A DNA stretch of 64,000 bases, from assembly GCA_050950145.1 (NCBI GenBank), contig JBMNHB010000001.1, forward strand, positions 556,820 to 620,819. The letters are read 5' to 3'. Shown here in pieces: positions 4,975 to 59,656 of this stretch (positions are counted from its first letter, which is position 1; every line of letters starts with the position of its first letter). The position numbers and the translations under genes are program-made. Source of the DNA: Candidatus Dojkabacteria bacterium. Lineage in GTDB: Bacteria > Patescibacteriota > Dojkabacteria > SC72. Under the pieces are notes generated by a model. It searched no databases and was not told the DNA's origin. It worked only from the letters and a program-made list of their open reading frames with translations.

Positions 4975-5962
4975 TTTTGTAAAGATTAAACGATTCTCTC
5001 TCTCCTTTCATGTTTTCAAAGGAAAGAAGAATTGAAGTTAATTCTATACTATCTGGTACTCCTCCCCTACCTTTCTTTGTAGAGTATAGTGTATCACCAA
5101 CAATGTTAATTCCCAAGTATTCAAGAGTTGCTCTAATTTGGTGCATTCTTCCGGTTTCAATTTTAATCAGTAATTCATTTTCATTAATTGGTTTTACATA
5201 TGTGAGAGCATATTTCCCTCCATTATTAAATTTCTCTGGTGTAAACCTCATCTTCATTCTATTTACATTGTTCCTTTGAACATATCCTTCTAATTTTTCC
5301 CAACTATCATCAACAATGAAATCTCTTGATTCTAAACTTTCAATAACAGAGGAAATATCTACACCTTTCTTAATTTTTTCCTTCAGTATAGTTGGGAAAT
5401 TCTTACTTTCCACATTTGCATGATAAAGTTTAACCACTTTGTGTTCTTCAAATTGTTTTTGATAATACATCTGTGATTCTTGCGTTTTAGCAAAAAGGAT
5501 TAAACCAGAAACTCCTTTATCTAACCTATGAACAACACCTCCTCTTTTAACTCTTTCATCATACTCTCCTTTTGACTGAAGATATCCAACAACATAGTTA
5601 GAAAGTGTATTATCACTGTTTCCAGCTCCTGGATGAACAACTATTCCTGATGCTTTATTTAATATTAGTATTTCACTATTTTCAAAGAAAATATCTAGAT
5701 CACCCTCTTGAGGAACTATTCTTAATCCAGATGTATCTTCCTTTATCTTCTGTTCTAAAAGAGAAACATCTATGTATACAAGATCATTCTCTTTTAATTT
5801 TAATGATGGTTTAACAACTTTTTCATTTACTAAAACTAAATTATCCCAATATTTCTTCAGAAAAGATCTGGTTACTAACTTGAAAGAAGTATCCTTAAGA
5901 ATGTTTAATACAAAAATATCTAACCTCTCTCCAACTGCATCACTAGAAACTCTTTCTTCCAT
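4940..5962 (-). CDS. rluD: RluA/RluD-family rRNA pseudouridine synthase with an N-terminal S4 domain
   Basis: RluA catalytic motif HRLDKGVSGLILFAKT. S4-like N-terminus (RLDIFV...). Confidence 0.8.
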   Translation of the reverse strand: MEERVSSDAVGERLDIFVLNILKDTSFKLVTRSFLKKYWDNLVLVNEKVVKPSLKLKENDLVYIDVSLLEQKIKEDTSGLRIVPQEGDLDIFFENSEILILNKASGIVVHPGAGNSDNTLSNYVVGYLQSKGEYDERVKRGGVVHRLDKGVSGLILFAKTQESQMYYQKQFEEHKVVKLYHANVESKNFPTILKEKIKKGVDISSVIESLESRDFIVDDSWEKLEGYVQRNNVNRMKMRFTPEKFNNGGKYALTYVKPINENELLIKIETGRMHQIRATLEYLGINIVGDTLYSTKKGRGGVPDSIELTSILLSFENMKGERESFNLYKNAQKTKSKRKI

Positions 5963-5965: not shown

Positions 5966-6802
5966 TTATCTCGGTAATCTAATCGGTTTAGTAACCTCCG
6001 GTATTGAGACCTGTCTAACAGATGAGACACTCTCAATAGTTACATTATTAATTTTCTTGGAATCTATTGTATTCATAACTACACCAGCTATATACCAAAC
6101 AAGAAGTATGACAATACCTACTATTGTTACAATTTGAGGAGAAGAAGAGAAATATACGAAACTAATAATTGCCACAGCAATTAGAGCAAAGATGTTTTGT
6201 AGAAGAATTCTTGTAGCATCTTTTCTCTTACCAGTATATATATTCATAAAGATACATTGTAAAATGATGAAAAGAACAAAAGGGATAAGTATCCACACAC
6301 CATGTTTGATCCATATATCATTCTTACTTTGTACCCCTACAAAGAGATATGTTAGAGCTATCATTCCCCAATTTGAAAGATACATAGCAGAAAACAATTC
6401 ACACCATCTCCATTTCTTTCTAAAAATAACTATTAGCGTTTGAGAAAGTAACACACCTAAGAAAGTATACAGAATATCTAGTTGACCATCCCAAAATTGA
6501 AAAAACCTCCACGGTAAAAGTCTGAAGAGATATACCTGATCACCATATCTCTCATATGGTAACCAATACCAAGTATATGATGAGAAATCAGACCAATTAA
6601 GGATGATGTACATAACTCTTCCTATAAATAGGCCTATGATTATGGAGACAATGAAGATATCAAAGACAGAAGAGTTATTCTTCCTACTTCTTACAGCTTC
6701 TTTCCAAAAGACATACAAACCAATGAAGAATATTACAAAAAGACCAATAAGTGGGTTAATACTACGGATAAAACTAATAATATTTGAAATAATCTCAGAC
6801 AC
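5966..6802 (-). CDS. lgt: prolipoprotein diacylglyceryl transferase
   Basis: Multi-pass membrane protein. IGLFIGRVMYII...LFRLLPWRFFQFWDGQLDILYTFLG aligns with the Lgt block LGGRIGYVLF...LFRVWDGGMSFHGG. Confidence 0.6.
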   Translation of the reverse strand: MSEIISNIISFIRSINPLIGLFVIFFIGLYVFWKEAVRSRKNNSSVFDIFIVSIIIGLFIGRVMYIILNWSDFSSYTWYWLPYERYGDQVYLFRLLPWRFFQFWDGQLDILYTFLGVLLSQTLIVIFRKKWRWCELFSAMYLSNWGMIALTYLFVGVQSKNDIWIKHGVWILIPFVLFIILQCIFMNIYTGKRKDATRILLQNIFALIAVAIISFVYFSSSPQIVTIVGIVILLVWYIAGVVMNTIDSKKINNVTIESVSSVRQVSIPEVTKPIRLPR

Positions 6803-6852
6803 TGGTGTTAGTCATACTTAATTAAGTATTATATGATAGCATAAATACAAAG

Positions 6853-7602
6853 CTATCTTCTCCTTTTCTTTTTCTTCTTTTTCTTACTAACTTGATTCTT
6901 TTCTTCAGAGTTTTCTCCCTGATTTTCTTTAATATCTTCTACTTTCTCTTTCTTTCCAAAAATTTTACTATGCAGATCTCTAAGCATATCCCCTATTGCA
7001 ACAGCTACTCCTTTCCTCTCTGTATACCTTACTCTCTTTGCTTCTACTACATCTGCAGCTTCCTCCTTGGATGCTTGAATCTGCTCTTCCATAACTTCCT
7101 TTGTTGGATGTTCCACCTCTATTGGAATAGTGGTTTTACCTGACATTTGATTCCCACAAGATGGACAATATTTATACTGCTTATCCATCTCTAATTCACA
7201 ATTTGAACATTTCATCTTTAAAACATATCTACAGTTTGGACAAAATGTAAAACCAGGATAGAGTTGTGTACCGCACTTAGGACAATCACCCAACTCAGCA
7301 GTTTCATACTTAAGATATCTTCTCTCAAGATCTGCCCAATATATCTCCTCTATCGTCTGGCTTGGTCGGATTAAGAGATAGATAATTAAACCAACAACAA
7401 AAAGAAGAAGAACAAGAAATACATATGCTATCCTTGTTTCTTTATTTGTCGTTCTATCTCCTGAATCTAGCCAAACCCAGTAAACCACAACTATCCAAAA
7501 AGCTCCTAACGCTATACCAAAAAGGGTCCACACAAAACTAAAATCAATCGTGGTTATTCTATCAAAGAAACCTAATACAACATCTTCCATAATTAATATC
7601 AC
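6853..7602 (-). CDS. membrane-anchored double zinc-ribbon protein with a poly-Lys/Arg C-terminus
   Basis: N-terminal transmembrane segment followed by CPKCG...CPNC and CSNC...CPSCG zinc-ribbon pairs. Confidence 0.5.
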   Translation of the reverse strand: MILIMEDVVLGFFDRITTIDFSFVWTLFGIALGAFWIVVVYWVWLDSGDRTTNKETRIAYVFLVLLLFVVGLIIYLLIRPSQTIEEIYWADLERRYLKYETAELGDCPKCGTQLYPGFTFCPNCRYVLKMKCSNCELEMDKQYKYCPSCGNQMSGKTTIPIEVEHPTKEVMEEQIQASKEEAADVVEAKRVRYTERKGVAVAIGDMLRDLHSKIFGKKEKVEDIKENQGENSEEKNQVSKKKKKKKRRR

Positions 7603-7742: not shown

Positions 7743-9065
7743 TTACTTACTGCTTTTATATAGGTTTCTAAAGCTTGCAATTTCAGGAATAAAGGCAAGG
7801 CGAATATCTCCTGTTGGTCCATTCCTATGCTTTGCTACAATTAAATCTCCGATACCTTTTTTCTCAGTATCAGGATTCCATATCTCTTCTCTGTCTATGA
7901 ACATGACAACATCTGCATCCTGCTCAATAGAACCAGACTCTCTTAAGTCTGATAACTGAGGTCTTCTACTCTGTCTCTGTTCAATAGCCCTAGATAGCTG
8001 AGAGAGTGCCACTACAGGAACATCTAATTCTTTTGCAATATTCTTTAATCCTTGTGATATCTCTCCTACTTCTAACACCCTACTCTCTTTACTATTCCCA
8101 TGCATAAGCTGAAGATAGTCAACAAAGATAATATCAACACCACTTTCAACTGCTAATCTTCTTGCTTTTGTTCTTAGGGAATTAATATGTTGACCTGCTT
8201 GATCATCAATAAATATATTTGCATCACCTAACTCACCCATTGTACTTGCCAACTTCATTAACTTCTTATCATCCAACCTTCCCGTTCTCATCTCCCAGAA
8301 AGGAATACCTGATTGCATACCTAAAAATCTCTCCATAATCTGAGTCTTAGACATCTCTAATGAGAAGAATGCAACAGTCTTTTTATCCACTAAGGCGGCA
8401 TACCTCATCATGTCTAATGCTAGCGCAGTTTTACCAACAGAAGGTCTTGCAGCTAATACTATTAAGTCCGATTTCTGAAAACCACCTAACAACTCATCTA
8501 AATCTTTAAATCCAGTAGAAATACCTAAATATGATTCATCTTTCTCTGCTCGTTCTGCCCTCTCATACGCCTCTTTAAGCAGATCTTTAATATGTACAAA
8601 GTTAACCTTAGTACCTGTTTGTGCTACATCAAAAATTTCTTTCTCTGATTTGTCAATAACCTCATCAATTGGAGTATCTTCATTCTTTGCAATAGATGAA
8701 ATTGTACCTGCTGCAGAGATTAATCCTCTTCTAATAGCACTCTCCTTCACAATCTCCCCATACTCCTCAGCATGAGATGAAGTTGCAACAGTTGTTAACA
8801 AATCTGCCAAATATCCAGCACCACCAGCAGCTGTAAGTTTCTTCTGTTTTTTTAATTTATCAACAACTGTAACTAAATCTACAGGAAGAGCATTATTAAA
8901 CAGATCCATAATAGCAGAATAGATTGTAATATGCTTACCATCAAAGAAATGCTCGGGTCTTAGCCATGCAGAAACAGTAATGATAGCGTCTTTGTCCATC
9001 AACATACAGCCAAGTAAGGATTTCTCTACTTCAATGTTTTGTGGTACATTTTTAATTTCTTTCAT
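7743..9065 (-). CDS. dnaB: replicative DNA helicase DnaB
   Basis: GISTGFKDLDELLGGF followed by Walker A ARPSVGKTALALDM. 440 aa. Confidence 0.9.
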   Translation of the reverse strand: MKEIKNVPQNIEVEKSLLGCMLMDKDAIITVSAWLRPEHFFDGKHITIYSAIMDLFNNALPVDLVTVVDKLKKQKKLTAAGGAGYLADLLTTVATSSHAEEYGEIVKESAIRRGLISAAGTISSIAKNEDTPIDEVIDKSEKEIFDVAQTGTKVNFVHIKDLLKEAYERAERAEKDESYLGISTGFKDLDELLGGFQKSDLIVLAARPSVGKTALALDMMRYAALVDKKTVAFFSLEMSKTQIMERFLGMQSGIPFWEMRTGRLDDKKLMKLASTMGELGDANIFIDDQAGQHINSLRTKARRLAVESGVDIIFVDYLQLMHGNSKESRVLEVGEISQGLKNIAKELDVPVVALSQLSRAIEQRQSRRPQLSDLRESGSIEQDADVVMFIDREEIWNPDTEKKGIGDLIVAKHRNGPTGDIRLAFIPEIASFRNLYKSSK

Positions 9066-10016: not shown

Positions 10017-10052
10017 ACTTCAGTATATCACAAAATATTGCCTACTGTTAAC

Positions 10053-10130
10053 CAGACCAGGTCTGTACAAAAACCATTGACAGTAAAGAGCTAACTACTG
10101 TTTTGTTACGATTAGTTAACTTACTATGAG
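10053..10130 (-). promoter_or_regulatory. palindrome-bearing promoter element (family copy 1) upstream of the csoR-like gene
   Basis: CAGACCAGGTCTG palindrome plus a conserved ~60-nt tail ending ...TTAACTTACTATGAG. A -10-like TATACT follows on the minus strand. Confidence 0.5.
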
Positions 10131-10819
10131 TCTTTCTGTAACTTCTTAATCTTTGCAACCATATCAGAGAAATATGTATATACAAAAAAGAGAATGAAAG
10201 ATATTGCAAGAATCTCAAAGGCTTCCTCCCAAAACACAAGAGTTCCGTACCCTTCTTGAAACATAATATTTGGCTTTGTGCTAACAAATTCTATAACTAA
10301 ACCAAGTACAAGAAATATTAAACCGATCATTAAAAGCATTGCTCTTTTCCAATTCTTTTTAATAAACTTCATTAAGAATACCCCTACAACAACAAAGAAA
10401 ATTAAGAAAGGAATTATGTAGTATGGTAACCATGTTGTTGATTCATATCCAAATTCACTTACAACATCCTGCAAATTCCTTTGTCCTTCCTTGATAAAAA
10501 GTTCATTAAAGAAAGTAGGTAGGTTTTCATGTATCTGACCTACTTCATCTAAAGCAAGAAAGAGAAATACAAATGCAAAGAAGATCCAAAAATACTTAAA
10601 CTTACCATCAGTAGAAAGAAATAGATAAAAAGCAAAGAATGAAACCAAAAGGACCTTCATACCTTGATATATCGTAGGTAAATTACTCTCTACATCCAAA
10701 TTAAAAAATGTTTTTTCTGGGAAAAGAGAATGTAAAAGCAGAACAAGTGAATCAACAAAAAGAAAAAGAATTATGAACGATATTAACTTGTTTTGTACAA
10801 TCCAACTCCTTAATTTCAT
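10124..10819 (-). CDS. polytopic membrane protein, hypothetical
   Basis: 231-aa ORF with 6-7 hydrophobic segments. Confidence 0.45.
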   Translation of the reverse strand: MKLRSWIVQNKLISFIILFLFVDSLVLLLHSLFPEKTFFNLDVESNLPTIYQGMKVLLVSFFAFYLFLSTDGKFKYFWIFFAFVFLFLALDEVGQIHENLPTFFNELFIKEGQRNLQDVVSEFGYESTTWLPYYIIPFLIFFVVVGVFLMKFIKKNWKRAMLLMIGLIFLVLGLVIEFVSTKPNIMFQEGYGTLVFWEEAFEILAISFILFFVYTYFSDMVAKIKKLQKDS

Positions 10820-10849: not shown

Positions 10850-10932
10850 GCGACTATAGTAAATTAACTAATCGTAACAAAAGTATGTTTAATCCTCACC
10901 CAGTAAGAAGAATCTTACAGACCTGGTCTGGT
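10850..10932 (+). promoter_or_regulatory. palindrome-bearing promoter element (family copy 2, inverted) upstream of rpmE
   Basis: The tail TAAATTAACTAATCGTAACAAAAG is the reverse complement of the tail of copy 1. Then ACAGACCTGGTCTGG, then GATAGTATAAT (-10), then 13 nt to the rpmE ATG. Confidence 0.5.
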
Positions 10933-19587: not shown

Positions 19588-22443
19588 TTAGAATGTCTTA
19601 AATCCTACTTCTTGTTTGTAAGTTGAAGTATCTGTTCCAAAGAATAACTCTGATATCTTAGTATACTTAGGATGATAGTTAACTATTAAAACTGGATTGG
19701 TTACATTAAGTAAACCTAAATCTCGCTGAAGTAAGAGACCTAAATCGTTGTTGTTTTTAGCAAATGATATTAAAGAACCAGATACCTTAACCCCATCTTG
19801 TAGTTTATCTGGCCTATTTGTCTCTGCTAATACCTGTATCTGTCCCCTAGCTATCATAAACGCATCTATTACATCATACTGTACTACTTCTCCTGTTGTT
19901 CTTGATGTGCTATCTATAATGATATTACCTCCTGCAAAGAGTATTAAACCACTAGTTTCAGGATTTTGTCCCCCTGTGCCTGGATTTATCTGTATATTTG
20001 CTATCGCTGTTATATTTGGTCTCACTATTATATCTTGTTCTGACACTACTAATATCTTACCTTGATACGTTGTGATTGTTACAGATTCCCCTGTTGGATC
20101 AGTTGAACCGATATCAATTGATTCCTTAGATTCCCAAATACATACCTCTTTATTGCCACATTGATTTAATGAAGTTATCGATTTAAAACCTAGTTTATAC
20201 CTATCTAATTTTAACTTTAGTAAATCAAATCTATTAGGTTCTAAAGTATTACCATCTGTTACATTAATTACACTGGTTGGATTCTTAAAACTTTCTGACA
20301 TACTTAGTGTAGAAGGATGGTGGGTATGGGTGGTAGTTATTAACTCTGTTCCAAGATTGTATTCTTGTCCAGCTATATCCTTTGGAATATATCCTATCCT
20401 TCCTTGAGAGAATAGTACGCCTCCCTTAGTTGATATCCAACGATTTAAATCAAATGAGGGAGTAGATGTTGCATCTGATGTGATGTAATTACAAGCTTGA
20501 TCATATGCAGTTATATAGAATTGAAGAAGTCCTGAGTCATTTTCATGTATATCTATTTTAGTTGAATTTATTGGAGAATTATAATACCAACCACTACTCA
20601 AAGGATCAATTTTACCTATTAATGATGATGTTGGCGTCCCTAATACTGTAATAGCTGCCTCTGGCAGAGGATCTATTCTCTTAACAGCTCTACCTGAGAT
20701 ACTATTATATACATTTACCACTGTATCTTTTACTCCTGATTCAGTATCATTACTTTGCCAACTTACTGTTGCCTGTCTTTGGTCATTAATTGTACTTGTA
20801 AAACTTCCAATCGTAGGATTAACAAAATCAAAATTCCAATACCATGGAGTTTCTGTCTTTATATTCTTTAAATCTATAAATAGATAAGGTTTGTTAGAAG
20901 GGCCTCTATGACTAAATATATCTGTCATTCCTGCATAGAAATTATATTTACCTGTTAAGAGAGAATCGGTTGGAAATTTTAACTCTAAAATTACTTTATA
21001 TCTGTTGGAATCTTCAGGATCAATACCATGAAAGACTCTCGTTATACTATCTATTACTACTTTTCTTTGACCATTATCATCTACATATATCTCTGTAGTA
21101 CCCTGTGGATGCTCACCATCTACATCTCTCCCCCACCCATGAAGAGTGCCTCCTGGATTATTAGCTTTATATATTGATGTCTTAGATACAAATATTCCAA
21201 TCCTATTTATATCTGAAGTAGTCTTATCACCACCCATCCAATAGGACTTATCTAAATATCCAGCAATACTGCTACCATCTTTTACAAGCCAAAGTACTAC
21301 TCCATTAATATCGTTTACTCCATCTGCATCTGTTCCTGTAATCTCAATTGTTAATGGATTATTTGCTTCTTTACCTGTGAAATCTATTGCTGTACAACCA
21401 GCTGATGTTGTATCGTTACCGTATCTTGTTAAACCTACAATATTAGGCAGTATATCTACTTTGTAATACCCTTTTCTCTCATCACTCTCTTTCCAATTAT
21501 TATCACATTCATTAAGAGTTGAATGCTTAGCTGTGACAGAACCTATTTCTCCTTCTGATAAAGATGTAGGATAGTTATCGCTGTATCTATGTGACGAGGA
21601 ATCTGTACTTGTTACTCCTACTACTCCCCCTATTAGATATCTTATATCTCTAGCACCTGAAGGTAGAGATATTGTAGGTACTCTAGTACGAGTAGGAGAT
21701 ATTATAGGGAACTTAACTCTTGTAGGTTTACTAGAGTCAGTAGAAAGATTACCACTATTAACCCATACATATGCATTTGGATCACTACTATTTGGATCAT
21801 CTCTCCTATCTACTATTAATTCTATTTCTTCTGGAGAAGGTGGTTTGGTATTAGTTTCAGGACGATAACAAACTTTTTTAGGATAAGTTTGTGTACCACA
21901 TTCAGATGAACAAGAACATGTATTTGGACCAGCACATCGCGGACCTGTATATGCATCATAATATCCTGAATCACACCCCTGATTACACGAACATTCGTAT
22001 GATTTATAACAAGTAATCTGACATTGATTAGATTTCCAATTTCCACATTCTGTCCAACAACCATCTTTGAAAGTTTTAGAGCATGTCCTTCCTGAAGAAG
22101 GTGCTGGAGTATAATAACCCTCCTTGCAAGTCGCTGTACAAGAACAGGTGTTATTGCAATTCCATGAACATCCCCCACTCAGATCTTCAAGGCAAGCAGA
22201 ACCCGCCCCCTCATAACAATTCTTACTACACGAGTCATATGAACATCCCCAATCATCTGCACAGGTAGCAGTATTCCAACAATGTATCCAATAGCTTAAA
22301 CATGCATATCCTGGGGCTGACCAGCATTTATATCCTTCAATAGGAGCATCAGTACAATAGCCAGAAGATACAGAAGAAGGTTTTATTAAACCTAATAAAA
22401 GAAAAAAATTGATAAAAAATAAAATACTCCATATTCGCTTCAT
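19588..22443 (-). CDS. 951-aa secreted cysteine-rich surface/adhesin-like protein
   Basis: Signal peptide. The first ~180 aa are very Cys-rich (CSC/CxxC repeats), followed by a long Thr/Ser/Gly/Asn-rich beta-type region. Confidence 0.6.
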   Translation of the reverse strand: MKRIWSILFFINFFLLLGLIKPSSVSSGYCTDAPIEGYKCWSAPGYACLSYWIHCWNTATCADDWGCSYDSCSKNCYEGAGSACLEDLSGGCSWNCNNTCSCTATCKEGYYTPAPSSGRTCSKTFKDGCWTECGNWKSNQCQITCYKSYECSCNQGCDSGYYDAYTGPRCAGPNTCSCSSECGTQTYPKKVCYRPETNTKPPSPEEIELIVDRRDDPNSSDPNAYVWVNSGNLSTDSSKPTRVKFPIISPTRTRVPTISLPSGARDIRYLIGGVVGVTSTDSSSHRYSDNYPTSLSEGEIGSVTAKHSTLNECDNNWKESDERKGYYKVDILPNIVGLTRYGNDTTSAGCTAIDFTGKEANNPLTIEITGTDADGVNDINGVVLWLVKDGSSIAGYLDKSYWMGGDKTTSDINRIGIFVSKTSIYKANNPGGTLHGWGRDVDGEHPQGTTEIYVDDNGQRKVVIDSITRVFHGIDPEDSNRYKVILELKFPTDSLLTGKYNFYAGMTDIFSHRGPSNKPYLFIDLKNIKTETPWYWNFDFVNPTIGSFTSTINDQRQATVSWQSNDTESGVKDTVVNVYNSISGRAVKRIDPLPEAAITVLGTPTSSLIGKIDPLSSGWYYNSPINSTKIDIHENDSGLLQFYITAYDQACNYITSDATSTPSFDLNRWISTKGGVLFSQGRIGYIPKDIAGQEYNLGTELITTTHTHHPSTLSMSESFKNPTSVINVTDGNTLEPNRFDLLKLKLDRYKLGFKSITSLNQCGNKEVCIWESKESIDIGSTDPTGESVTITTYQGKILVVSEQDIIVRPNITAIANIQINPGTGGQNPETSGLILFAGGNIIIDSTSRTTGEVVQYDVIDAFMIARGQIQVLAETNRPDKLQDGVKVSGSLISFAKNNNDLGLLLQRDLGLLNVTNPVLIVNYHPKYTKISELFFGTDTSTYKQEVGFKTF

Positions 22444-22494
22444 TGTTGCCTACTTATATAATTTATGCTTATCAAAACTTAGACTATATTTCAA

Positions 22495-23568
22495 TTATTT
22501 TATAGCACTTATGGTATATAACAATAATTTGTCTAGATTTATTGTCTTATTTTCAAGGTTTTTCCTGGCTTCCTCTACAGAAGAATTGATATAATCCTCG
22601 ACATCTGGTACATACATATCTTCAAAATTTTCGGGCCTTACCACACAAATCGGAAAAAGCTCCTTCTCTCCCAAATCTTTTACAATACCCTGTCGAGGAA
22701 TAATTGGCTCCATATCGATACAACCTTTTAATATGCTTTCTGGTACAATTGTATTGCTTGATACAGTCATAAAATCATATTCCTTGTTAATTTCTAAATC
22801 TGAGAAATTATCTGAGGTTACAATTGATACTCTACCTGTTTCATCAATTCTATTGAGAAATCTTTTGGATTTAAATAAAACGTTGTATCGCTGCCCCTTT
22901 ATCTCCCCTTCCATAAGAAGCTCTAATGTGGAATCATCTAAAGTTATGGATTTGAGAATAAAATTATAGAACAAAACAAAATCTAAATTAGCTCCACCAA
23001 CCGATACACTATCTAATGAGTTATAATTATTTTTTCTAATATCTGCTAATTCCTTAGTTAGAATTCTTGGTCTTAATTTCTTTAAATTGCTGTTTAACTC
23101 AAATAATTTAAATAATTCATTGTCATCTAAAATAGTGAGTTTTATTTTATCTAAAGAATAATTAAAAATTTTCCCCCTTTTATAATCTAAAACCATTTCT
23201 ACTGGTAAAAAAGCATTCTCAACCGCATATGGATTCTCCCAATCTATACTATCTTTTTTTATACACAATGTAGAGTCTCGAAGATCCTTATCATCTTCTA
23301 CTAGCACCTCTACTAAAATACAATCCTCCTCATTTTTTGTCTTAATATCCTTTAAAACTGCTTTACAGTGTAATTTAAGCAATCCCTTATCTTTCTCAAT
23401 TTCACAATCTTGTAACAGCTCTGAGTATTTATCCAAGTTATAAAAAGTTTTAGTGCTAATTATCTGTGAAATTCTATCCTTAAAAATGAGACCTAAAAAA
23501 GCAATTAATAAAAATATAAAGCAAATTATTAGTACAATAATACTTTTTCTATTAATAACAAATTTCAT
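22495..23568 (-). CDS. N-terminally membrane-anchored hypothetical protein
   Basis: Single N-terminal transmembrane segment. Lies immediately downstream of the Cys-rich protein. Confidence 0.45.
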   Translation of the reverse strand: MKFVINRKSIIVLIICFIFLLIAFLGLIFKDRISQIISTKTFYNLDKYSELLQDCEIEKDKGLLKLHCKAVLKDIKTKNEEDCILVEVLVEDDKDLRDSTLCIKKDSIDWENPYAVENAFLPVEMVLDYKRGKIFNYSLDKIKLTILDDNELFKLFELNSNLKKLRPRILTKELADIRKNNYNSLDSVSVGGANLDFVLFYNFILKSITLDDSTLELLMEGEIKGQRYNVLFKSKRFLNRIDETGRVSIVTSDNFSDLEINKEYDFMTVSSNTIVPESILKGCIDMEPIIPRQGIVKDLGEKELFPICVVRPENFEDMYVPDVEDYINSSVEEARKNLENKTINLDKLLLYTISAIK

Positions 23569-23891
23569 AATTTCAGTTTAATATGTTTTTTTTATAATGT
23601 AAAGGCTGGGGGTGTTTAATGGAATTGCAAAAAATACCTACTTATGGTATAATCTGCCACATTATTAGATGGTGTTTTATTTATCATAATAAACCCTTTT
23701 ATTAAATAATGTGCTCTTTAAAAGTATCTATAAATATATAATGATTTAATTCAATATATTTTTAGATTAAATAGCATGTGATGAGATTGCTATTTTAATG
23801 GGATGCACTTTGTATCTATTAACAATATATGTACAGAATGCATTCCATTAGGATGCAAAATCAACAAGAATCCAAAAAGAAGGAGAAAAAA

Positions 23892-24770
23892 ATGAAAAAG
23901 ATAATGTTTTTGCTAATTGTTCTATCTATCCTTTTAGTTGCTTGCGAAGCAACACCTGCAGCGCCAACAGTGGTGCCTACGGATAAACCCACGGAAATTC
24001 CTACCAAGGAACCAACTTCCGTACCAACGGAGGAACCAACTATCGTTCCGACACAGGAGCCAACTCCGGTACCCACCGAGGAAATTCCTGAAAGTTGTCC
24101 ATTGGATAGTTTTTCCGTGCCAGAAGATATCACAATAGACTTGGGAGTATATGGTGAATTCGAACTTACAAACGGAATAGGTTTAGATATATTCGTCATG
24201 CATCCCACGTTACTCAACCCCATACGTGAAGGGGAAGATGTTACCACCTTATACAATGAAGGCGGTAGCTTTTCTTTTCAAATGCCCTCTCCTGGTTTCG
24301 CTTACACTGGTAAAAATACCAGCATCACTGTAGATGGCGAATTTTGGGGAGAAGAAGGCTTTGCTTTCTCAGAATCAGGTGAGCTTGTCATTCCGGCTGG
24401 AGCTCAAGTTATGGTTGAGACAGAGGGTGGATTTGAAGAACAAGAATCACCTATCATCGTCTATTTCCTTTCAGGGACACCAACTAAAGCAGATGATATA
24501 TCTTTACCTGAGAATGCAACTTTAAGCTGTAAAGACCTATGGCAGATTACTATTAATAACATTGATAGTAATGATATTGAACTCTCTGTTAACACGGGAC
24601 ATAATTTGTTGTTTCCTGGAACTGAAGATGATATTCTAGGTATAAAATTCCCGAATAGCACTGATTTCCAACCGTATGAAGAAACATTTCTCCGTAGAGA
24701 GGCTACCCTGAAGATCAAGGGGAACGGTTCCATTACAGGTTTTATATTTGACCTGTACGATAAAGATTAA
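23892..24770 (+). CDS. lipoprotein with a Pro/Thr/Glu-rich linker (xPT repeats)
   Basis: Start moved to the ATG preceded by AGGAG (MKKIMFLLIVLSILLVAC lipobox). A (E/K)PTxVPT repeat follows. Visibly GC-richer than its neighbours, with rare codons (ACG, GCG, CCG). Confidence 0.6.
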   Translation: MKKIMFLLIVLSILLVACEATPAAPTVVPTDKPTEIPTKEPTSVPTEEPTIVPTQEPTPVPTEEIPESCPLDSFSVPEDITIDLGVYGEFELTNGIGLDIFVMHPTLLNPIREGEDVTTLYNEGGSFSFQMPSPGFAYTGKNTSITVDGEFWGEEGFAFSESGELVIPAGAQVMVETEGGFEEQESPIIVYFLSGTPTKADDISLPENATLSCKDLWQITINNIDSNDIELSVNTGHNLLFPGTEDDILGIKFPNSTDFQPYEETFLRREATLKIKGNGSITGFIFDLYDKD

Positions 24771-26023: not shown

Positions 26024-26036
26024 AATGGTGTAATTA

Positions 26037-26120
26037 TACCACAGACCTGGTCTGTACATTTTTCCTTACCCCTAAACACTTAAAAGACCAAATTTAAGGT
26101 TTTTTAATCTTACTATGGGA
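26037..26120 (-). repeat. ~85-bp direct repeat A: palindrome-bearing promoter element upstream of ychF
   Basis: ACAGACCTGGTCTGT plus a tail. Near-identical (2 mismatches in ~82 nt) to 27519-27603. On the minus strand it reads ACAGACCAGGTCTGTGGTATAAT, then 9 nt, then ATG. Confidence 0.7.
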
Positions 26121-26126
26121 AGTTAC

Positions 26127-26897
26127 CTAAACACCCTTAAAACTCTCCCTTAGATATTGAATAATATAGTTATAGAAAGAAGAAAGATTCTCTCTCTCAT
26201 CCCTAGGAACAAAAGGACTTAAATCTCTAACAAAATCTTTCTTAGAAAACCAAACCAACCTCTCCTCCAACATCTTAGAATTAATATCATGTATATCATA
26301 GTACTCTAATTTCTTAATCACCAAATCTTTATCAAATCTAGCTCCTAACTCTTGTAAAACCCACAAATCATACAAATCTCTATGCTTAATCCTTGTCATT
26401 ACAGCTCTTACCTTCTCTGCAAATATCTCATTAATACTAAGAACATTCACAAAACTTCTAAATACAATTGGATACTCTGTTCTTAATATACTCTGAGTTG
26501 GTTCAAGAACATTCTCCCTAGTTGAAAAATCCAATTTCACAAACACCCTACCTTCTAAAAATGGAATATCTGCAGTTAAAAGATATGTATATCCTGATAT
26601 ACTCTCTTTTCTTTTAAAAGAAAATGGATATATATTCTCTAACTTCTTTAAAAAAGGAACTATCTTCTCTTCAAATTCATCCTCTTCCATATCTACAGAA
26701 AAATCTAAATCTTCTGAAAACCTCTGCCCTTTATATACCAATCTAATAGCAGTACCACCTTTAAAAAAGATATCTTTAGAAAATGTTTCCTCATACAATT
26801 CTTTAAGAAAAGAAAGTTGTACAAATTCCCTAACTATTACAGCATCTGATATCTGAGTTTTTTTAGATAATTCTTTTACTTGTTTCTTAGTTATCAT
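26127..26897 (-). CDS. abiEii: AbiEii/AbiGii-family nucleotidyltransferase toxin (DUF1814)
   Basis: Signature FKGGTAIRLVY...RFSEDLDFS. Confidence 0.8.
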   Translation of the reverse strand: MITKKQVKELSKKTQISDAVIVREFVQLSFLKELYEETFSKDIFFKGGTAIRLVYKGQRFSEDLDFSVDMEEDEFEEKIVPFLKKLENIYPFSFKRKESISGYTYLLTADIPFLEGRVFVKLDFSTRENVLEPTQSILRTEYPIVFRSFVNVLSINEIFAEKVRAVMTRIKHRDLYDLWVLQELGARFDKDLVIKKLEYYDIHDINSKMLEERLVWFSKKDFVRDLSPFVPRDERENLSSFYNYIIQYLRESFKGV

Positions 26898-27475
26898 AGA
26901 TATTTTGATATGAGAAGTTTAATTTCTTTTTTTGATTTTGAAGACAGAAGAGGAAGATATTCTTCTACACCCCTTTTCTTAATATTTGAAAAATCCATCT
27001 CATTTAGATATTCTTCACTTTTTTTCTTTAAAGCTACCATGTAAAGGTAATCAAAAAGAGCTTTCTCTGGATATGCAATTAAACAATTACCTGATTTGTA
27101 ATATCCCATATACAATCTTTTATTTATCTTAATATATCTATATGTTTTTCCTAATATCTCTTTCTTCTTACTTTTCTTTGATGTTGCAGATGTAATTTCA
27201 AAAGGAAACTGACTCAGTATTCCGTGGTAATTTAAAGCTGTTTCAAAAGAGATATATGAAGGAGAGTAAAGAAAGTTTGCTATCTCAAAGTCAGAAACAT
27301 CAGATTCTGCAACCATGTATTTACCCTTTTCTAGAGATATGAGAATATTCTTTTCAATTAATCTTCTAATATTATTCTCTAAAGTCCTTGTAACTTCTAT
27401 CCCTGTTAATCTAGAGATATCCTGCGTTGTTAAAAGACTTCTTTTATTATTTTCTAACAGATTTGCTGTTTCCAT
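26894..27475 (-). CDS. abiEi: AbiEi-family antitoxin/transcriptional regulator (wHTH)
   Basis: N-terminal wHTH-like LTTQDISRLTGIEVTRTLENNIRRLIEKNIL. Overlaps the AbiEii gene by 4 nt. Confidence 0.65.
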   Translation of the reverse strand: METANLLENNKRSLLTTQDISRLTGIEVTRTLENNIRRLIEKNILISLEKGKYMVAESDVSDFEIANFLYSPSYISFETALNYHGILSQFPFEITSATSKKSKKKEILGKTYRYIKINKRLYMGYYKSGNCLIAYPEKALFDYLYMVALKKKSEEYLNEMDFSNIKKRGVEEYLPLLSSKSKKEIKLLISKYL

Positions 27476-27518
27476 ATACCACCTATTTTAGGTGGTTCGT
27501 GGAAACATGTCAAGAGAT

Positions 27519-27603
27519 AACACCACAGACCTGGTCTGTACATTTATCCTTACCCCCAAACACTTAAAAGACCAAATTTAAGGTTTTTTAATCTTACTAT
27601 GGG
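27519..27603 (-). repeat. ~85-bp direct repeat B: palindrome-bearing promoter element upstream of abiEi
   Basis: Near-identical to repeat A. It diverges after ...CTTACTATGGGA. Confidence 0.7.
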
Positions 27604-27657
27604 AGATTACTTAGTCAACCTTCATCTCCCATACCAAAACATGATATTATAATATTC

Positions 27658-29532
27658 ATGAAATCAAAAAATATTTTACTAACAATTTTGTCTATCTTTT
27701 TTCTTCTCACTACTACCTCTACCCTCTTTGCACAAACAAATCCTGATTTTAAAATTAATACATATACACAGATCTACTACACCACAGGTAAGGACTACGT
27801 AACAGTTATTAATGAATATCAAAGACTTGTTGAAAATAATTCCTACTATTTCACAAAAGAAGGAGAAAAGGTATTCCATATACCAGATGTAAACACAGAT
27901 GAAGAAAATGTGAGAAAGGAAAGAGCATTTAAGCTAGATACTCTCAAAGTTACAGATACTAGGAACAATCCAGTACACTTTACAAAGGAGGAAAAAGGTA
28001 TAGGAGAAGGGATATATATACATATCCCATACTACAGAACTACTACTAAATCCCTACCTTATAAAATTTTAATGACATATGATACTCACGACAATGTAAT
28101 CAAAAGTGGCAACCTAATTACTATAGTTGCATCCTCACTCCCTACTGACACCCTATTTATCAGAAACGACGAAAAAAGCAAAACAACAACAGAATTTAAT
28201 TACGATTTATCCATCATCACCGATAAAAACATCCCTACTCTAGCAAAAGCATATCCCTCTTTTATCAAAGAAGAGAAAGATGAAAAAATATATTACAACT
28301 TCAAAGCAGAAGATAGAATTGGGAAATCACCAACTCTTGAATTTGGAACTTCAGTCATTTATAGATTTGAATTAGAATACGAAACACCAAAAACAGACAA
28401 CCTAATACCTTCCCAATATTCAGAAATATTTAAAGCTCTCTCCACAAACATATATGAAATCTCTTTACCAAGAGAATTCTCAGAAACTGATCAGAAGGTC
28501 ATTATAGATGAGATAATACCAACACCTAGGAAGATATATAGGGATAGTGAAGGAAATGTAATTGCCTCTTTTGAATTAGCTGCAAATAAAGAAGATAGAA
28601 TTAAAGTTACAGGTTATATCTTCTCTAACCAAAATGCACATAATTCGGTGACTAAAAATCCTATGGATATTAGTTTCAGTGAGTACTTAGAAAAAATCAA
28701 AAATGATAAAGGAAGTAGCAAATATTTAACACCTACAAAGTACTGGGAAGTTAAAGATCCTTTTATCCAACAGAAAGCATCAGAGTTAAAAGAAGAAAAA
28801 CAAACACTCTATGATGTAGTTGACGCTGTTTATCAATATGTAAATGACACATTGACTTATGATGAAGTCAAAGCTAGTTCTGAAAATGAAAGGATTGGTG
28901 CAGTAAAAGCCCTGACAGGAGGTGCATCTGTATGTATGGAATATGCAGACTCTATGATTGCAATACTAAGAGCTCAAGGTATACCTGCAAGAGCTGCCTT
29001 AGGTTATGCAAATATTACAGACACTCCAGTAGAATTAATTAGACACCAATGGTTACAGATATGGATTCCTGATTATGGATGGTTAAGTATTGATCCTACA
29101 TTTGAAAGTCCAAACAGAAAAATGGGCCAATTAATTGAAAGAGTACTTTGGGAAACTTTCTACGATGATTCACTTTCAAATATTAGTATCTTTTCTGCAA
29201 ATAAATTAGGTAATTTTAGTGAAGAGAAATTTTCTATAAAAATCTATTCTGTTGAGGAAACCCCTCCAGAGAGGGAATTAAAGAGATATAGCGATATACT
29301 AGATATTGAGAATTCAAATAGATATACTGTTGGTAACTTTACAAATTCACTATTTAAAACAACAGTACTAGGAAAAGCTTTACTCGTAACACTCCCTATT
29401 ATTGTTACTATCGCGCTCCTCATATTCTTCATCGTAATAATAAAACTGGGTATCAAGAAAGTAAAAAAGAAGAAAGAACCAGAGAAAGAGAGAACCCTCA
29501 CAAATAGATCAGTAGGTAGATTTACTACTTAA
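27658..29532 (+). CDS. transglutaminase-like cysteine-protease-fold protein with a signal peptide and a C-terminal membrane anchor
   Basis: Core GGASVCMEYADSMIAILRAQGIPAR (Cys) ...HQWLQIWIPDYGWLSIDPT (His/Asp). C-terminal transmembrane segment plus KKVKKKK. Confidence 0.7.
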   Translation: MKSKNILLTILSIFFLLTTTSTLFAQTNPDFKINTYTQIYYTTGKDYVTVINEYQRLVENNSYYFTKEGEKVFHIPDVNTDEENVRKERAFKLDTLKVTDTRNNPVHFTKEEKGIGEGIYIHIPYYRTTTKSLPYKILMTYDTHDNVIKSGNLITIVASSLPTDTLFIRNDEKSKTTTEFNYDLSIITDKNIPTLAKAYPSFIKEEKDEKIYYNFKAEDRIGKSPTLEFGTSVIYRFELEYETPKTDNLIPSQYSEIFKALSTNIYEISLPREFSETDQKVIIDEIIPTPRKIYRDSEGNVIASFELAANKEDRIKVTGYIFSNQNAHNSVTKNPMDISFSEYLEKIKNDKGSSKYLTPTKYWEVKDPFIQQKASELKEEKQTLYDVVDAVYQYVNDTLTYDEVKASSENERIGAVKALTGGASVCMEYADSMIAILRAQGIPARAALGYANITDTPVELIRHQWLQIWIPDYGWLSIDPTFESPNRKMGQLIERVLWETFYDDSLSNISIFSANKLGNFSEEKFSIKIYSVEETPPERELKRYSDILDIENSNRYTVGNFTNSLFKTTVLGKALLVTLPIIVTIALLIFFIVIIKLGIKKVKKKKEPEKERTLTNRSVGRFTT

Positions 29533-33463: not shown

Positions 33464-33542
33464 ACAGACCTGGTCTGTAGATTTATCCGTATCAGTAAAG
33501 GACAGAAGGGCTGTTTTTTGGTTTTTTAATCTTCCTATAGGT
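33464..33542 (-). promoter_or_regulatory. palindrome-bearing promoter element (family copy) upstream of the beta-CASP gene
   Basis: ACAGACCTGGTCTGT plus the tail ...GGTTTTTTAATCTTCCTATAGG. Confidence 0.5.
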
Positions 33543-33970
33543 CATTTACCTGTTGAACCAAAACCACCATCTCCTCTCTCTGTTTCTTCTAATTGTTCTA
33601 CTACTTCAAGATTATCTTTAAGAGACAAACATGGGACAATAACTATCTGTGAAAATCTTTCACCATCTGTAAGAATAATATCTTCTGTAGAAGTATTTAC
33701 TACCTGAGCTATAATCTCACCTCTGTAATCACTATCTATAACTCCCACGGAGTTCTTTAACATCAAACCTTTCTTACCAAAAGAAGACCTTACAAAAAGC
33801 AAACCTACATATCCTTTTGGTATCTCTAGATATACTCCTGTATAAACCTCTGTACTCTCTGATGGTTTAATTACTATTGATTTATCTGCCTTTACTTTTA
33901 AATCCGCCCCAGCAGAAAACTCTGTTTTTACCTCTGGAATATACTTTGAATCATCCACTCTAATTCTCAT
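33542..33970 (-). CDS. dut: dUTP diphosphatase
   Basis: GVIDSDYRGEI motif. Confidence 0.8.
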   Translation of the reverse strand: MRIRVDDSKYIPEVKTEFSAGADLKVKADKSIVIKPSESTEVYTGVYLEIPKGYVGLLFVRSSFGKKGLMLKNSVGVIDSDYRGEIIAQVVNTSTEDIILTDGERFSQIVIVPCLSLKDNLEVVEQLEETERGDGGFGSTGK

Positions 33971-35384
33971 TTATCTCCTTAACAATCTTAGATAATTTCT
34001 CTTTTGTATTAAGCATAGGATCATCAAGGACTCTTTCTAAAAGTTCTCTAAGAACCTCACCCATCTTAGGTCCTTTCTCTACCCCTAATTTCTCTAAATC
34101 CTTTCCTGTAATATTTAAATCTGTTACTTTTAGTGCCATATCTTGATGTCTAACATCAGATATCCTTTTTTGTAAAACTGTAATCTCATCAGGTTTAAAA
34201 GATGTGAAAGGATTAGATTGGGCATCCGCCATTCTAAGCTTAAACAAATCATCAATATTCTCCTCTCCTACCCTCTGTATGAATCTTCTAACAGCAGAAT
34301 CAGACCATTTATGCAACTCAATATTCTTTTTTTCTTCTTCACTCATACCCTCTTCAATATGAGGATAGTAGAACATATGATTAAGAATTAATTTCTTTGT
34401 CCTTTCTATCTCACTCTTTGGAAATTTCATTCTTTTCATAATCTGCTCTGCCATATCAGCACCCATTTTGTCATGACCATAGAAATGACCATTGCCCATA
34501 TCTGTCCTTGGTTTTGCAATATCATGAAGAAGTGCAGCCAATTTAACTGAATCCTCAGCAGCATCACATGTCTTTATCGCATGATAGTACACATCATCTG
34601 CATGAAAAAGTTTCTGTTCAACTCCTACTCCCTCCGTCAGTTCTGGCATGAAGATTTGTAAGAGACCTGTCTCTCTCATTAATTCAATACCTACAGAAGG
34701 CTTGGGAGAATTAAGAAGCATTTTCATAAACTCATCACGAATTCTTTCCATTGAAATATTTTCAGCAACTGCCTTAGACTCTTTAATTGCTTCAAATGTC
34801 TGTTCTTCAATTGTAAATCCTAACTGAGCAGCCATTCTACATGCCTTAAAAGATCTCAAACCATCTTCCTTAAACCTCTCAAGCGGTGTACCTACTGCCC
34901 TAACAACTTTCTTCTTAATATCCCCTATTCCATCAAAAGGATCATATATCTCAACCTCTTTTAATTCTTTCCCATCATCTAAGTCTAACTTAGAAAGATC
35001 CACAGCCATTGCATTAAATGTAAAATCTCTCCTACCCAAGTCTTTATCTATCTCATCAACAAACTTAACTGATGAAGGCCATCTACCATCAATATATCCT
35101 GCCTCACTTCTAAATGTAGTTGTTTCAACCTCATAAGTTTCTCCATGTTCATCCTGAACAAGAACAATTACAGTACCAAACTTAGCTCCTGTTGATATTG
35201 ATTTTGGAAACATATTTAACATCTCATCAGGTAGAGCATTAGTTGCCAGGTCATAGTCATGTGGTTTTCTACCAAGGACAATATCCCTAACAGCACCTCC
35301 TACAAGGTAACACTCATACCCCTCTTTTATGAGAATCCTTGCTACTTTTTGTACATAATTTGGTAAATGAATAGTTACTTTCAT
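33960..35384 (-). CDS. cca: CCA-adding tRNA nucleotidyltransferase with an HD domain
   Basis: GGAVRDIVLGRKPHDYDLAT head domain. HD motif LLHDIAK. Confidence 0.8.
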   Translation of the reverse strand: MKVTIHLPNYVQKVARILIKEGYECYLVGGAVRDIVLGRKPHDYDLATNALPDEMLNMFPKSISTGAKFGTVIVLVQDEHGETYEVETTTFRSEAGYIDGRWPSSVKFVDEIDKDLGRRDFTFNAMAVDLSKLDLDDGKELKEVEIYDPFDGIGDIKKKVVRAVGTPLERFKEDGLRSFKACRMAAQLGFTIEEQTFEAIKESKAVAENISMERIRDEFMKMLLNSPKPSVGIELMRETGLLQIFMPELTEGVGVEQKLFHADDVYYHAIKTCDAAEDSVKLAALLHDIAKPRTDMGNGHFYGHDKMGADMAEQIMKRMKFPKSEIERTKKLILNHMFYYPHIEEGMSEEEKKNIELHKWSDSAVRRFIQRVGEENIDDLFKLRMADAQSNPFTSFKPDEITVLQKRISDVRHQDMALKVTDLNITGKDLEKLGVEKGPKMGEVLRELLERVLDDPMLNTKEKLSKIVKEINEN

Positions 35385-36606
35385 ACTTTTTCTTTCTTAA
35401 AACAGAATACCAAAGAAAGAGATCTACAACAAGAAGCATTACACCACAAGTAAGAATACTAAAATCAATATTACCTGTCTTAGGTAGTTCTACAAGAGTA
35501 TCTGTAACACCCAATACTACCCCTTCTTTTTCTGTTTTAATATCTTCCTTCTCTTCTACTTCTTCTGATTCAACATCATCAATCATTAGCTCTTCTTCAG
35601 ATTCTCTCTCTATCCTAATATTCTCTGATGTAAAAATATATGGATTTCTCTGCATACAGAAACTCTCTTGAGATGGCCCCATACTTCCTCCAGCAACCCA
35701 ACCACCATCTTCTCGTTTTGAGAACACAGATATTGATTCAACAGAGAAGGTATTACTAAAATTATTCCCAAGTACAGTGCATTTTCTAGCAACATTATTA
35801 TCCTTTATAACAAAACTACCTAAATCACCATCTTCAAACTCCCCACTAAGTTGGTATTTAACCAAATATTCTTGTTTTCCTTGCAGATTTAAAATCTCTT
35901 TAAAAGAACCATGTTCAAAAGAAATACCATTGTATGGATAGCTAGTAGTATTCTTTACTAAAACCGTAATCTCTACTCCACCTTCAATTCCTTTTACTTC
36001 TGGTTTGGATATCTCTAAGGGTAACTTAATATGGAATCTATCTAAAACAAAACTACCTTTAGCATCAACAGGTATATCTTCTAATCCTGAATATCTTCTA
36101 AAAATACCTTTACGAGTAAACCACTTACCAGAAGAATACAAATTAATTGGTTCTAGGGAAAACTCTTCACTAGTAAAGTTCCCAAATTCTGTTAAATATC
36201 CCAAAAATGAAATATGCCCTCTTGAGTATGCCACAGCTATCTCTTGGATATTAATAGGATGGCTACTTTCATTCCAATAGTGATACAAAACATCTACTGT
36301 CATACCTGGTGGTAAAGCTATATATGTACCTTTACTGTTAATTCTCCTCTTAACACTATCTTGAAACAGAGAAGCTACATCTATATCAAAGAGTTCATAG
36401 GAGGATGTAGCTACAACATCAAAAGGTGAATATGTTATCACTCCATTCTCTACTACTATTTTCTCAGGTAACTCTTCACCTAAAGCATATGATATTGTAC
36501 TGTAAAAACTATTCTGACTAATATCTCCACTATCACTAAAATCATCAGCAAACACAGGAGATGCTAAAAAGAAAAAGAACAGAAAGAAAGGAAGTATTTT
36601 CTTCAT
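35314..36606 (-). CDS. secreted LPxTG-type cell-surface protein
   Basis: Classic signal peptide (MKKILPFFLFFFFLASPVFA). C-terminal LPKTG, then a hydrophobic segment, then RKKK. Confidence 0.6.
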   Translation of the reverse strand: MKKILPFFLFFFFLASPVFADDFSDSGDISQNSFYSTISYALGEELPEKIVVENGVITYSPFDVVATSSYELFDIDVASLFQDSVKRRINSKGTYIALPPGMTVDVLYHYWNESSHPINIQEIAVAYSRGHISFLGYLTEFGNFTSEEFSLEPINLYSSGKWFTRKGIFRRYSGLEDIPVDAKGSFVLDRFHIKLPLEISKPEVKGIEGGVEITVLVKNTTSYPYNGISFEHGSFKEILNLQGKQEYLVKYQLSGEFEDGDLGSFVIKDNNVARKCTVLGNNFSNTFSVESISVFSKREDGGWVAGGSMGPSQESFCMQRNPYIFTSENIRIERESEEELMIDDVESEEVEEKEDIKTEKEGVVLGVTDTLVELPKTGNIDFSILTCGVMLLVVDLFLWYSVLRKKKYESNYSFTKLCTKSSKDSHKRGV

Positions 36607-59575: not shown

Positions 59576-59656
59576 ACAGACCTGGTCTGTAAGATTATCC
59601 GTACCAGTAAAGGACAGAGAGGTCATTTTTAAGGTTTTTTAATCTTTTTATAGGAT
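59576..59656 (-). promoter_or_regulatory. palindrome-bearing promoter element (family copy) upstream of rpsB-tsf
   Basis: ACAGACCTGGTCTGT plus the tail ...GGTTTTTTAATCTTTTTATAGGA. TAGTATAAT (-10) lies downstream on the minus strand. Confidence 0.5.

Follow-up and report, generated by a model that had tools for sequence, protein, structure and literature searches.

An AbiE cassette upstream of ychF in Candidatus Dojkabacteria, flanked by two copies of a dispersed promoter-associated repeat

How does a two-gene defense cassette come to lie in the short region between two divergent genes, with nearly the same 80-odd nucleotides on either side of it? The question is raised by a 64,000-nucleotide stretch of the Candidatus Dojkabacteria contig JBMNHB010000001.1 (positions 556,820 to 620,819; hereafter the window), in which an abiEi-abiEii pair stands directly upstream of ychF and is bracketed by two direct repeats, called here E1 (upstream of abiEi) and E2 (upstream of ychF). 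An original prediction made on this DNA had taken the repeats for a host promoter module and the cassette for a recent acquisition. The best explanation as a whole, and one that we consider probable, is that the AbiE module inserted at a dispersed promoter-associated repeat that is now found on both sides of it, and that the high identity of E1 and E2 is due to their descent from a local duplication, together with constraint or homogenization, and not to a very recent arrival. For comparison, other contigs and loci were retrieved, here numbered L002 to L131.

The 1.39-kb unit from 26127 to 27513 reads as a complete AbiE module, with a DUF1814 toxin carrying motifs I-IV, an upstream AbiEi, an overlapping bicistron and a promoter inverted repeat. 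The features from which the pair had been recognized are there as described: abiEii carries the signature KGGTAIRL...RFSEDLDFS, and the abiEi stop and abiEii start overlap by 4 nt (ATGA), within the gene limits given in Table 1. Searches with profile hidden Markov models (HMMs), which had been proposed as a check, give the assignment strong support from PADLOC, Pfam and NCBIfam. AbiEii matches Pfam PF08843 (2.3e-29; 103.5 bits against a cut-off of 22.5) and PADLOC AbiEii (9e-35), while AbiEi matches PADLOC AbiEi (1.5e-28 over residues 33-189) and NCBIfam TAA_AbiEi (3.7e-10). Only Pfam AbiEi_4 falls short (3.5e-4; 21 bits, under the 25-bit cut-off), and because this is the winged helix-turn-helix (wHTH) model, the wHTH of AbiEi is weakly shown. 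In an alignment of 24 homologs, the nucleotidyltransferase residues G47, G48, R59, D63, D65, K162, R169, D174 and D177 of AbiEii are invariant, and they match motifs I-IV of the Streptococcus agalactiae toxin, whose mutation abolishes toxicity (Dy et al. 2014, PMC3985639). Single-sequence (phmmer) searches of the PDB with AbiEi and AbiEii gave no useful match. By homology, AbiEii would be a growth-arresting nucleotidyltransferase toxin neutralized by AbiEi, and the pair would serve as an abortive-infection or addiction module.

The cassette also appears to bring its own control region. The best sigma-70 match of the region is TTGACA-N17-TAAAAT, at 11 of 12 positions, and a 17-bp inverted repeat, CCACCTAAAATAGGTGG, spans its -10 box; both are conserved in homologous cassettes without the E1/E2 element. 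The arms of this repeat covary in the distant Patescibacteria cassettes of L128 and L131 (CCACC/GGTGG versus CCACG/CGTGG; CCACGTATAATACGTGG in L128); it resembles the operator expected for AbiEi and is presumed to be one. The bicistron would be driven from this promoter, with AbiEi presumably binding the inverted repeat and repressing the operon. It had been proposed that abiEi instead reuses a TGTTAT box supplied by the element. Such a box is present near abiEi, but it is outscored as a promoter by TTGACA-N17-TAAAAT, and an element-supplied promoter is unsupported because the cassette's own promoter is both the best-scoring one and conserved where there is no element. The nearest AbiE cassettes, in L094 (76% amino acid identity) and in L098 and L099 (71%), lie in unrelated contexts and have no element; L094 and L098 come from other Dojkabacteria genomes. 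Nucleotide homology to the L094 and L098 cassettes runs from the first base of TTGACA (27513) to 26135, 8 nt beyond the abiEii stop; AbiE cassettes in Patescibacteria apparently travel as minimal promoter-to-stop units.

With respect to the repeats, the claim of near identity holds. The segments 26038-26120 and 27522-27604, at an offset of 1484 nt, differ at only 2 of 83 positions (26062 and 26073); starting the comparison at 26037 brings in a third mismatch, and a repeat finder stretches the pair to 106 nt at 91% identity (26033-26138 and 27517-27622). The other family copies are much more diverged, as had been noted: E1 and E2 are 91-98% identical to each other versus 58-74% identical to the remaining family members of the window. 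Moreover, they have in common bases that lie outside the family consensus, with GTAAYYTC preceding the distal box and GGT following the palindrome. We favor a local duplication of about 106 nt of target, at or after insertion, because the two copies share these non-consensus bases and are far more alike than the other members. The 2 differences, though, are those of the window strain. E2 is invariant across all examined conspecific contigs that contain it, and E1 is variable among strains, such that in most of them the two copies differ at 7 positions in the core of about 80 nt and at 8-9 over the 106-nt repeat.

What the site looks like without the cassette can be read from other species. The order CCA-adding enzyme, RNase J, IF-2B-like gene, AMP phosphorylase, tgl and ychF is shared, and the gene order around tgl is conserved in L015-L019, L116-119 and L121. 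Five other species that share this order have tgl and ychF back to back, without cassette or element, which supports the proposal that the AbiE cassette is an insertion upstream of ychF. The tgl-ychF gap measures 31-170 nt in L015, L016, L017 and L019 and 35-90 nt in L116-119 (YchF 89% identical), with neither AbiE nor the element in any of them. The empty site that had been predicted, with one copy of the element before ychF, was looked for in relatives and exists in L121 (YchF 90% identical), where a single element, CTCATAG...ACAGACCAGGTCTGT, lies immediately 5′ of TGGGATATAAT-ychF, with tgl opposite and no AbiE. Within the species, by comparison, the cassette is present in all contigs long enough to reach the site; there are at least 18 of these, 96-100% identical at the nucleotide level and from many samples (L002-L011, L103-105, L122-127), retrieved through identical or near-identical YchF or AbiEii. 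The locus thus offers a set of filled and empty sites (no element, one element, element-cassette-element) for a defense or toxin-antitoxin cassette in an uncultured lineage of the candidate phyla radiation (CPR), a group little studied for its mobile elements.

The age of the insertion has to be judged on two scales. The cassette is not a strain-level novelty, because every conspecific contig reaching the site has it, and the claim of a recent acquisition fails to this extent. Relative to speciation, however, the cassette is young. In L106, the AMP phosphorylase gene and tgl are 59-91% identical to the window, whereas from about the tgl start codon through E1, abiEi and abiEii the identity is 93-99%, with the switch, from 59-88%, at about 27620-27660. 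The L106 allele is distinct from the cassettes of all known conspecific strains, and between the window species and L106 the synonymous divergence (pS) of the cassette is about 0.15. This points to a recent exchange of the cassette across the species boundary at the same locus. Among strains of the species, abiEi alleles have a pS of 0.16-0.23, with a ratio of nonsynonymous to synonymous divergence (pN/pS) of about 0.1, and abiEii alleles a pS of 0-0.05. The promoter and abiEi (26894-27513) are far more polymorphic than abiEii (26127-26897), with several deep alleles (L003-L007, L103-105, L122), and this contrast between antitoxin and toxin implies that recombination has broken the cassette near the boundary of the two genes or that abiEi alleles have been introgressed. 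Of the 54 mismatches that separate the window from L007, 44 lie within 27634-26900, a divergent tract of about 750 nt over E1, the promoter and abiEi. A gene-conversion tract from E2 was also considered as the source of the 2-mismatch identity in the window strain and was downgraded; the differences from L007-type strains belong to the tract of about 750 nt, and the E1 of L106 is near the E2 type.

The history that we favor would run as follows. The element would have reached the ychF site first, giving a single-copy state like that of L121, and the cassette would have come later, inserting into the short divergent tgl-ychF region at the junction of the resident element of about 80 nt and the ancestral ychF -10 box; it would since have come to occupy every conspecific contig reaching the site and have crossed into at least one other species. 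About 106 nt of the target, the element plus a few flanking bases, would have been duplicated on both sides of the cassette, so that ychF would keep its native upstream context. A single crossover between a circle carrying element and cassette and the resident element would give the observed structure and, with it, an excisable cassette; a long staggered break followed by fill-in would equally give the duplication. The direct repeats would allow excision and reinsertion of the cassette by homologous recombination. If the cassette were excised, the circle or tandem form would join TAG-GTAACTTC-element-CTGTGGTGTTATCTC-TTGACA, and a site left by precise excision would read tgl-...AAGTAATCTC-element-CTGTGGTATAAT-ychF.

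Several observations weigh against this history. The element of L121 is only 59% identical to the window copies, and for this reason its positional orthology comes from where it lies and not from its sequence. L106 is a single 5-kb metagenome contig whose identity switch sits beside a repeat, and a chimeric assembly is possible. Finally, in L108 (ychF 96% identical at the nucleotide level), on a contig that begins within abiEii, that gene is followed by G-TGTGGTATAAT-ychF, with no E2. Since TGTGGT also terminates E1, L108 may be read either as a secondary 81-nt deletion of E2 or as the original insertion, which duplicated the 6 bp TGTGGT; on the latter reading the second element copy would have come afterwards.

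L108 also bears on an account in which the element was not duplicated at insertion: an independent copy of the element would have arrived with or near the cassette and been homogenized later by gene conversion, or the cassette would have gone in with a 6-bp duplication of TGTGGT and a second copy been added afterwards. The absence of an element between abiEii and ychF in L108, at a junction that repeats the TGTGGT ending the upstream copy, is what this account expects, and it also accommodates the invariance of E2 while E1 varies and the mosaic make-up of E1 among strains, since in those with a tetratricopeptide repeat (TPR) gene at the site a different distal box is joined inside the element, which amounts to recombination between family members. 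We nevertheless regard it as unlikely, because E1 and E2 share bases beyond the consensus at both ends, the closest AbiE cassettes elsewhere are without the element, and the L108 state is seen in 1 contig versus at least 18 with two copies.

The other two alternatives place the event either much later or much earlier. A very recent strain-level acquisition, dated by the 2-mismatch repeats and with both genes using promoters supplied by the element, draws on the identity of the copies at 81 of 83 positions in the window strain, on the empty sites in other species and on the near-identical cassette across a species boundary; it becomes decidedly improbable once it is considered that the cassette is in all conspecific contigs reaching the site, that the two copies differ at 7 core positions (8-9 over 106 nt) in most strains, that the abiEi alleles are old (pS about 0.2), that abiE has a conserved promoter of its own and that the ychF -10 box is older than the element. 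Conversely, AbiE could be ancestral at the locus, with single-copy and no-copy sites as secondary losses by recombination between the repeats. Deletion between direct repeats is easy and would leave just the arrangement of L121, but five more distant species have neither cassette nor element, the divergence of the cassette from that of L106 (pS about 0.15) is far under that of its flanks (59-91% nucleotide identity), and the L121 copy resembles the window copies no more than does any family member taken at random, leaving very little room for this view.

What the element contributes to ychF is less than had been supposed. On the minus strand upstream of ychF the sequence does read ACAGACCAGGTCTGT-GG-TATAAT as described, but a TATAAT 8-9 nt before the ychF ATG is also found in species without the element (L015, L016, L017, L116/117 and L120), and because it is kept there, the -10 box is ancestral and not a gift of the repeat. 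Nor is the description of ychF as an essential GTPase gene supported: its product, which scores 379.5 bits with TIGR00092 (cut-off 279), is annotated as the redox-regulated ATPase YchF. In Escherichia coli, YchF is dispensable. The true ychF start is the ATG at 26023, homologs likewise having 368 aa, and the start at 26059 in a listed 380-aa open reading frame (ORF), which begins within the palindrome, is a mechanical artefact. The ATG lies 9 nt past the -10 box. More generally, ychF, tgl and topA all have a -10 box 7-9 nt upstream of the ATG and no Shine-Dalgarno sequence (26024-26041, 27625-27657 and 63372-63405), which suggests that their mRNAs are leaderless. The tgl-ychF intergenic region of L015, only 31 nt long (8957-8989), holds two back-to-back -10 boxes, each 7-8 nt from an ATG and again with no Shine-Dalgarno sequence, and leaderless transcripts are therefore suggested there as well.

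Table 1. Features of the AbiE locus and members of the repeat family (window coordinates)
Feature	Position	Strand	Remarks
Element copy E2, upstream of ychF	26041-26120	-	Palindrome 26041-26055; distal box CCCATAGTAAGATTAA at about 26105-26120; local repeat 26033-26138
Element copy E1, upstream of abiEi	27525-27604	-	Palindrome 27525-27539; distal box at about 27589-27604; local repeat 27517-27622
ychF, redox-regulated ATPase YchF, 368 aa	24917-26023	-	TIGR00092 equivalog; Pfam MMR_HSR1 and YchF-GTPase_C
Extended -10 box of ychF, TGGTATAAT	26033-26041	-	TATAAT part outside the family-consensus element
abiEii, DUF1814 nucleotidyltransferase toxin (by homology), 256 aa	26127-26897	-	Pfam PF08843, PADLOC AbiEii
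abiEi, antitoxin and regulator (by homology), 193 aa	26894-27475	-	PADLOC AbiEi, NCBIfam TAA_AbiEi
Cassette promoter (predicted)	27479-27513	-	TTGACA 27513-27508, 17-nt spacer, TAAAAT 27490-27485
Inverted repeat, presumed AbiEi operator	27495-27479	-	Spans the -10 box and the Shine-Dalgarno sequence
tgl, transglutaminase-like, ancestral divergent neighbor of ychF	27658-29532	+	Pfam Transglut_core, 1.2e-20
Family copy before csoR/rcnR-like gene	10052-10131	-	Tail to tail with the 10854-10931 copy; 231-aa membrane-protein gene between
Family copy before rpmE (ribosomal protein L31)	10854-10931	+	Alignment, nhmmer
Family copy between dut and RNase J-like gene	33464-33543	-	No copy at this position in L015 and L116
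Family copy before rpsB	59576-59655	-	Alignment, nhmmer
Family copy before topA	63406-63485	-	Degenerate palindrome GCAGACCAGGTCTAG

E1 and E2 belong to a family with 7 members in the window, their palindromes at 10052, 10917, 26041, 27525, 33464, 59576 and 63406. Each consists of a distal box, CYATAGTAAGATTAA, and a proximal palindrome, ACAGACCWGGTCTGT, the latter with 13 strand-matches in the window versus 1.16 expected by chance; an nhmmer profile also recovers the family. Alignment and nhmmer place the ends at CYATAG(T)AAGATTAA (distal) and TACAGACCWGGTCTGT (proximal). Ends and length (78-80 nt) are conserved while the middle is not, and pairwise identity across the family is 50-84%. All 7 copies are upstream of gene starts with the palindrome gene-proximal, the genes being rpsB, topA, an RNase J-like gene (rnj), rpmE, a csoR/rcnR-like gene, ychF and abiEi. 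Sigma-70-like hexamers follow 3′ of the palindromes at a variable distance, 0 to 12 nt before the -35 box, and at ychF and topA the palindrome adjoins the extended -10 box. Among relatives, L015 (YchF 81% identical) has 3 copies and L121 has 1, and 17-20 kb of sequence from L016-L019 and L116 each yielded none. Orthologous sites may have or lack the element: L015 and L116 are without it both at ychF and at rnj. The family is genus-restricted, confined to close relatives, and previously undescribed, and the element is likely a proliferating promoter-upstream module whose palindrome serves as a protein-binding site.

Other identities for the element were tried and set aside. As an RNA gene, riboswitch or terminator it fares poorly: RNAalifold on 12 copies, in both strands, finds just the 5-bp stem of the palindrome with no compensatory changes, an Rfam search gives no match at E <= 1, and the palindrome scores only as a weak terminator-like hairpin in the window. 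The copies do not behave as integron attC sites, being single, dispersed and in both orientations, with a 15-nt end palindrome as their sole symmetry, though no screen of the window for intI was made. A transposon-derived repeat, by contrast, is still a candidate: the element is present or absent at the orthologous ychF and rnj sites, as such a repeat would be, and the 13 aligned copies showed neither terminal inverted repeats nor a regular duplication of the target. Membership of a mobile AbiE unit was rejected since the closest AbiE cassettes (71-76% amino acid identity; L094-L102) carry no copy. On the opposite strand the distal box, CTTACTATAGG, bears some resemblance to a T7-type promoter core, but 3 of the 7 copies would drive antisense transcription and no phage-type RNA polymerase is in evidence. 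The palindrome was likewise compared with CsoR-type, FadR/GntR-type, LexA, parS and dif sites, and none fits.

Family members are also met at other places where gene content differs between strains or species. In L003-6 and L123-126, a 595-aa TPR-repeat gene lies between tgl and abiEi (L003 6592-8477; about 27583-27620 in the window), where it replaces 36 nt, and its right junction falls inside E1, whose middle part there carries another distal box, CCTATAGTTGAAATTTTTG. In L003 and L122, dut has been deleted down to about 12 nt of its start, and the edge of the deletion coincides with the distal box of the rnj copy. The dut gene itself (33542-33970) is present in the window strain and in L015, deleted in L003 (1-815) and L122 (1472-1628), and absent in the L116 species (2088-2171). 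The tail-to-tail copies that abut in L015 have the 231-aa membrane-protein gene between them in the window. By a rough, post hoc count, 4 of 6 gene-content differences touch an element, and of about 55 intergenic regions roughly 7 are occupied by one; at other indels, namely a gene at 35314-36606 and the interval from ychF to S6, the window shows no element. These cases, a small sample assembled post hoc, are suggestive of recombination at or between family members. It is a long shot that the element is more than a promoter-upstream module and that Dojkabacteria capture cassettes by recombination at it, with promoter-to-stop units gained, lost or swapped at its ends. If it were true, the captured units would include AbiE, the TPR gene and the membrane-protein gene, with the loss of dut flush with a distal box as a further case, and the duplications of similar size at two unrelated insertion sites of homologous AbiE cassettes (106 nt here; 61-95 nt in L094) could mark a specific mode of integration not yet described, for instance a long staggered break, or a circle integrated by a trans-acting enzyme that recognizes the palindrome.

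Compared with characterized systems, the module itself is ordinary, and current understanding is not overturned. With the AbiE type IV toxin-antitoxin or abortive-infection system of S. agalactiae and Lactococcus it has in common the DUF1814 toxin motifs I-IV, an upstream wHTH-type AbiEi, the 4-nt overlap, the bicistron, a TAAAAT -10 box and a promoter inverted repeat (Dy et al. 2014, PMC3985639). It differs in having one 17-bp inverted repeat centered on the -10 box, in place of two 23-bp repeats 3 nt apart, and in its CPR host. MenAT of Mycobacterium tuberculosis shares the toxin superfamily and the two-gene layout, and its DUF1814 toxins modify tRNA acceptor stems (PMC7450476, PMC11375011). 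It is a likely model for the biochemical target of AbiEii, although the similarity is too low for a PDB phmmer match.

As a mobile unit, the cassette recalls, in several respects, the minimal mobile elements of Neisseria, which are exchanged by homologous recombination between conserved genes (PMC1797815, PMC3787668): here too a small cassette without a recombinase lies between conserved genes, is missing in relatives and is near-identical across species at the same site, but it has on either side a duplicated dispersed repeat, 106 nt long. Mobile promoters and promoter-carrying miniature inverted-repeat transposable elements (MITEs), such as Correia elements (PMC3575422), share with the repeat a dispersed upstream sequence of about 80 nt, the unrelated genes behind it and presence or absence in sister species. 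Unlike Correia-type MITEs, the window element was found to have no terminal inverted repeats or consistent target duplication; its promoter hexamers lie outside it at variable distance, and only its ends and length are conserved. With integrase-less elements flanked by att sites (CIMEs) and with integron cassettes bearing attC the locus has in common a cassette lacking a recombinase between direct repeats of about 60-130 nt, in a window not screened for recombinase genes, whereas the copies here are single, precede housekeeping genes in both orientations, and form no array and no attC-like symmetry. Overall, this is a clean but fairly ordinary mobile defense cassette, and what could reward more study is the repeat family together with the long duplication around the cassette.

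Flanking direct repeats do occur at another AbiE locus. The cassette in L094 lies between direct repeats unrelated to E1 and E2 (5280-5384 and 6795-6882), with a 61-nt core at 97% identity that extends, if one indel is allowed, to about 95 nt. Such repeats were rejected as a feature typical of AbiE in general: 2 of the 5 Patescibacteria loci checked have them (the window and L094, and not L098, L128 or L131), and 27 distant AbiE-like loci in viral contigs are all without them. Repeats 0.8-3.5 kb apart occur at four unrelated metagenome loci; in the two inspected, L110 and L112, these are copies of a gene 3′ end. Here AbiE-like two-gene cassettes on high-GC contigs sit between copies of the 3′ end of an upstream ORF (ending in KIVVALKETIRLMEEIDEIIPSWPIE and the stop) at 111-328, 2851-3068 and 5335-5411 of L110 and at 569-691, 2892-3020 and 5289-5362 of L112, in what looks like serial insertion into the gene 3′ end, each event regenerating that end. 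The L094 locus also has a second, shorter AbiEii-like gene, with repeated small hairpins, GTTACACC-NAAGTGGAAC, upstream. In L098, abiEii is followed at once by four tandem repeats of about 32 nt (AATATTAGTAGTTAATTCCTTAAATTAGGCC...; 6763-6893), which also overlap the beginning of a gene for an AAA_14/DUF4143 ATPase.

Two further observations concern other parts of the window. The interval between ychF and rpsF (19590-24770; L015 10095-10417, L116 9150-15763, L120 1987-5711) is a hotspot of gene-content change, where each species has its own set of large and mostly unannotated proteins, and in L015 it holds just a degenerate element-like match (nhmmer 7e-7). Two tandem candidate structured RNAs on the plus strand (59660-59743 and 59825-59908) gave no Rfam match at E <= 1; each follows GGTATAAT and would form a closing stem, AAGUUGGG...CCCAACUU, around an inner stem, CCCUCYG...CGGAGG, with minimum free energy z-scores of -3.2 and -3.7.

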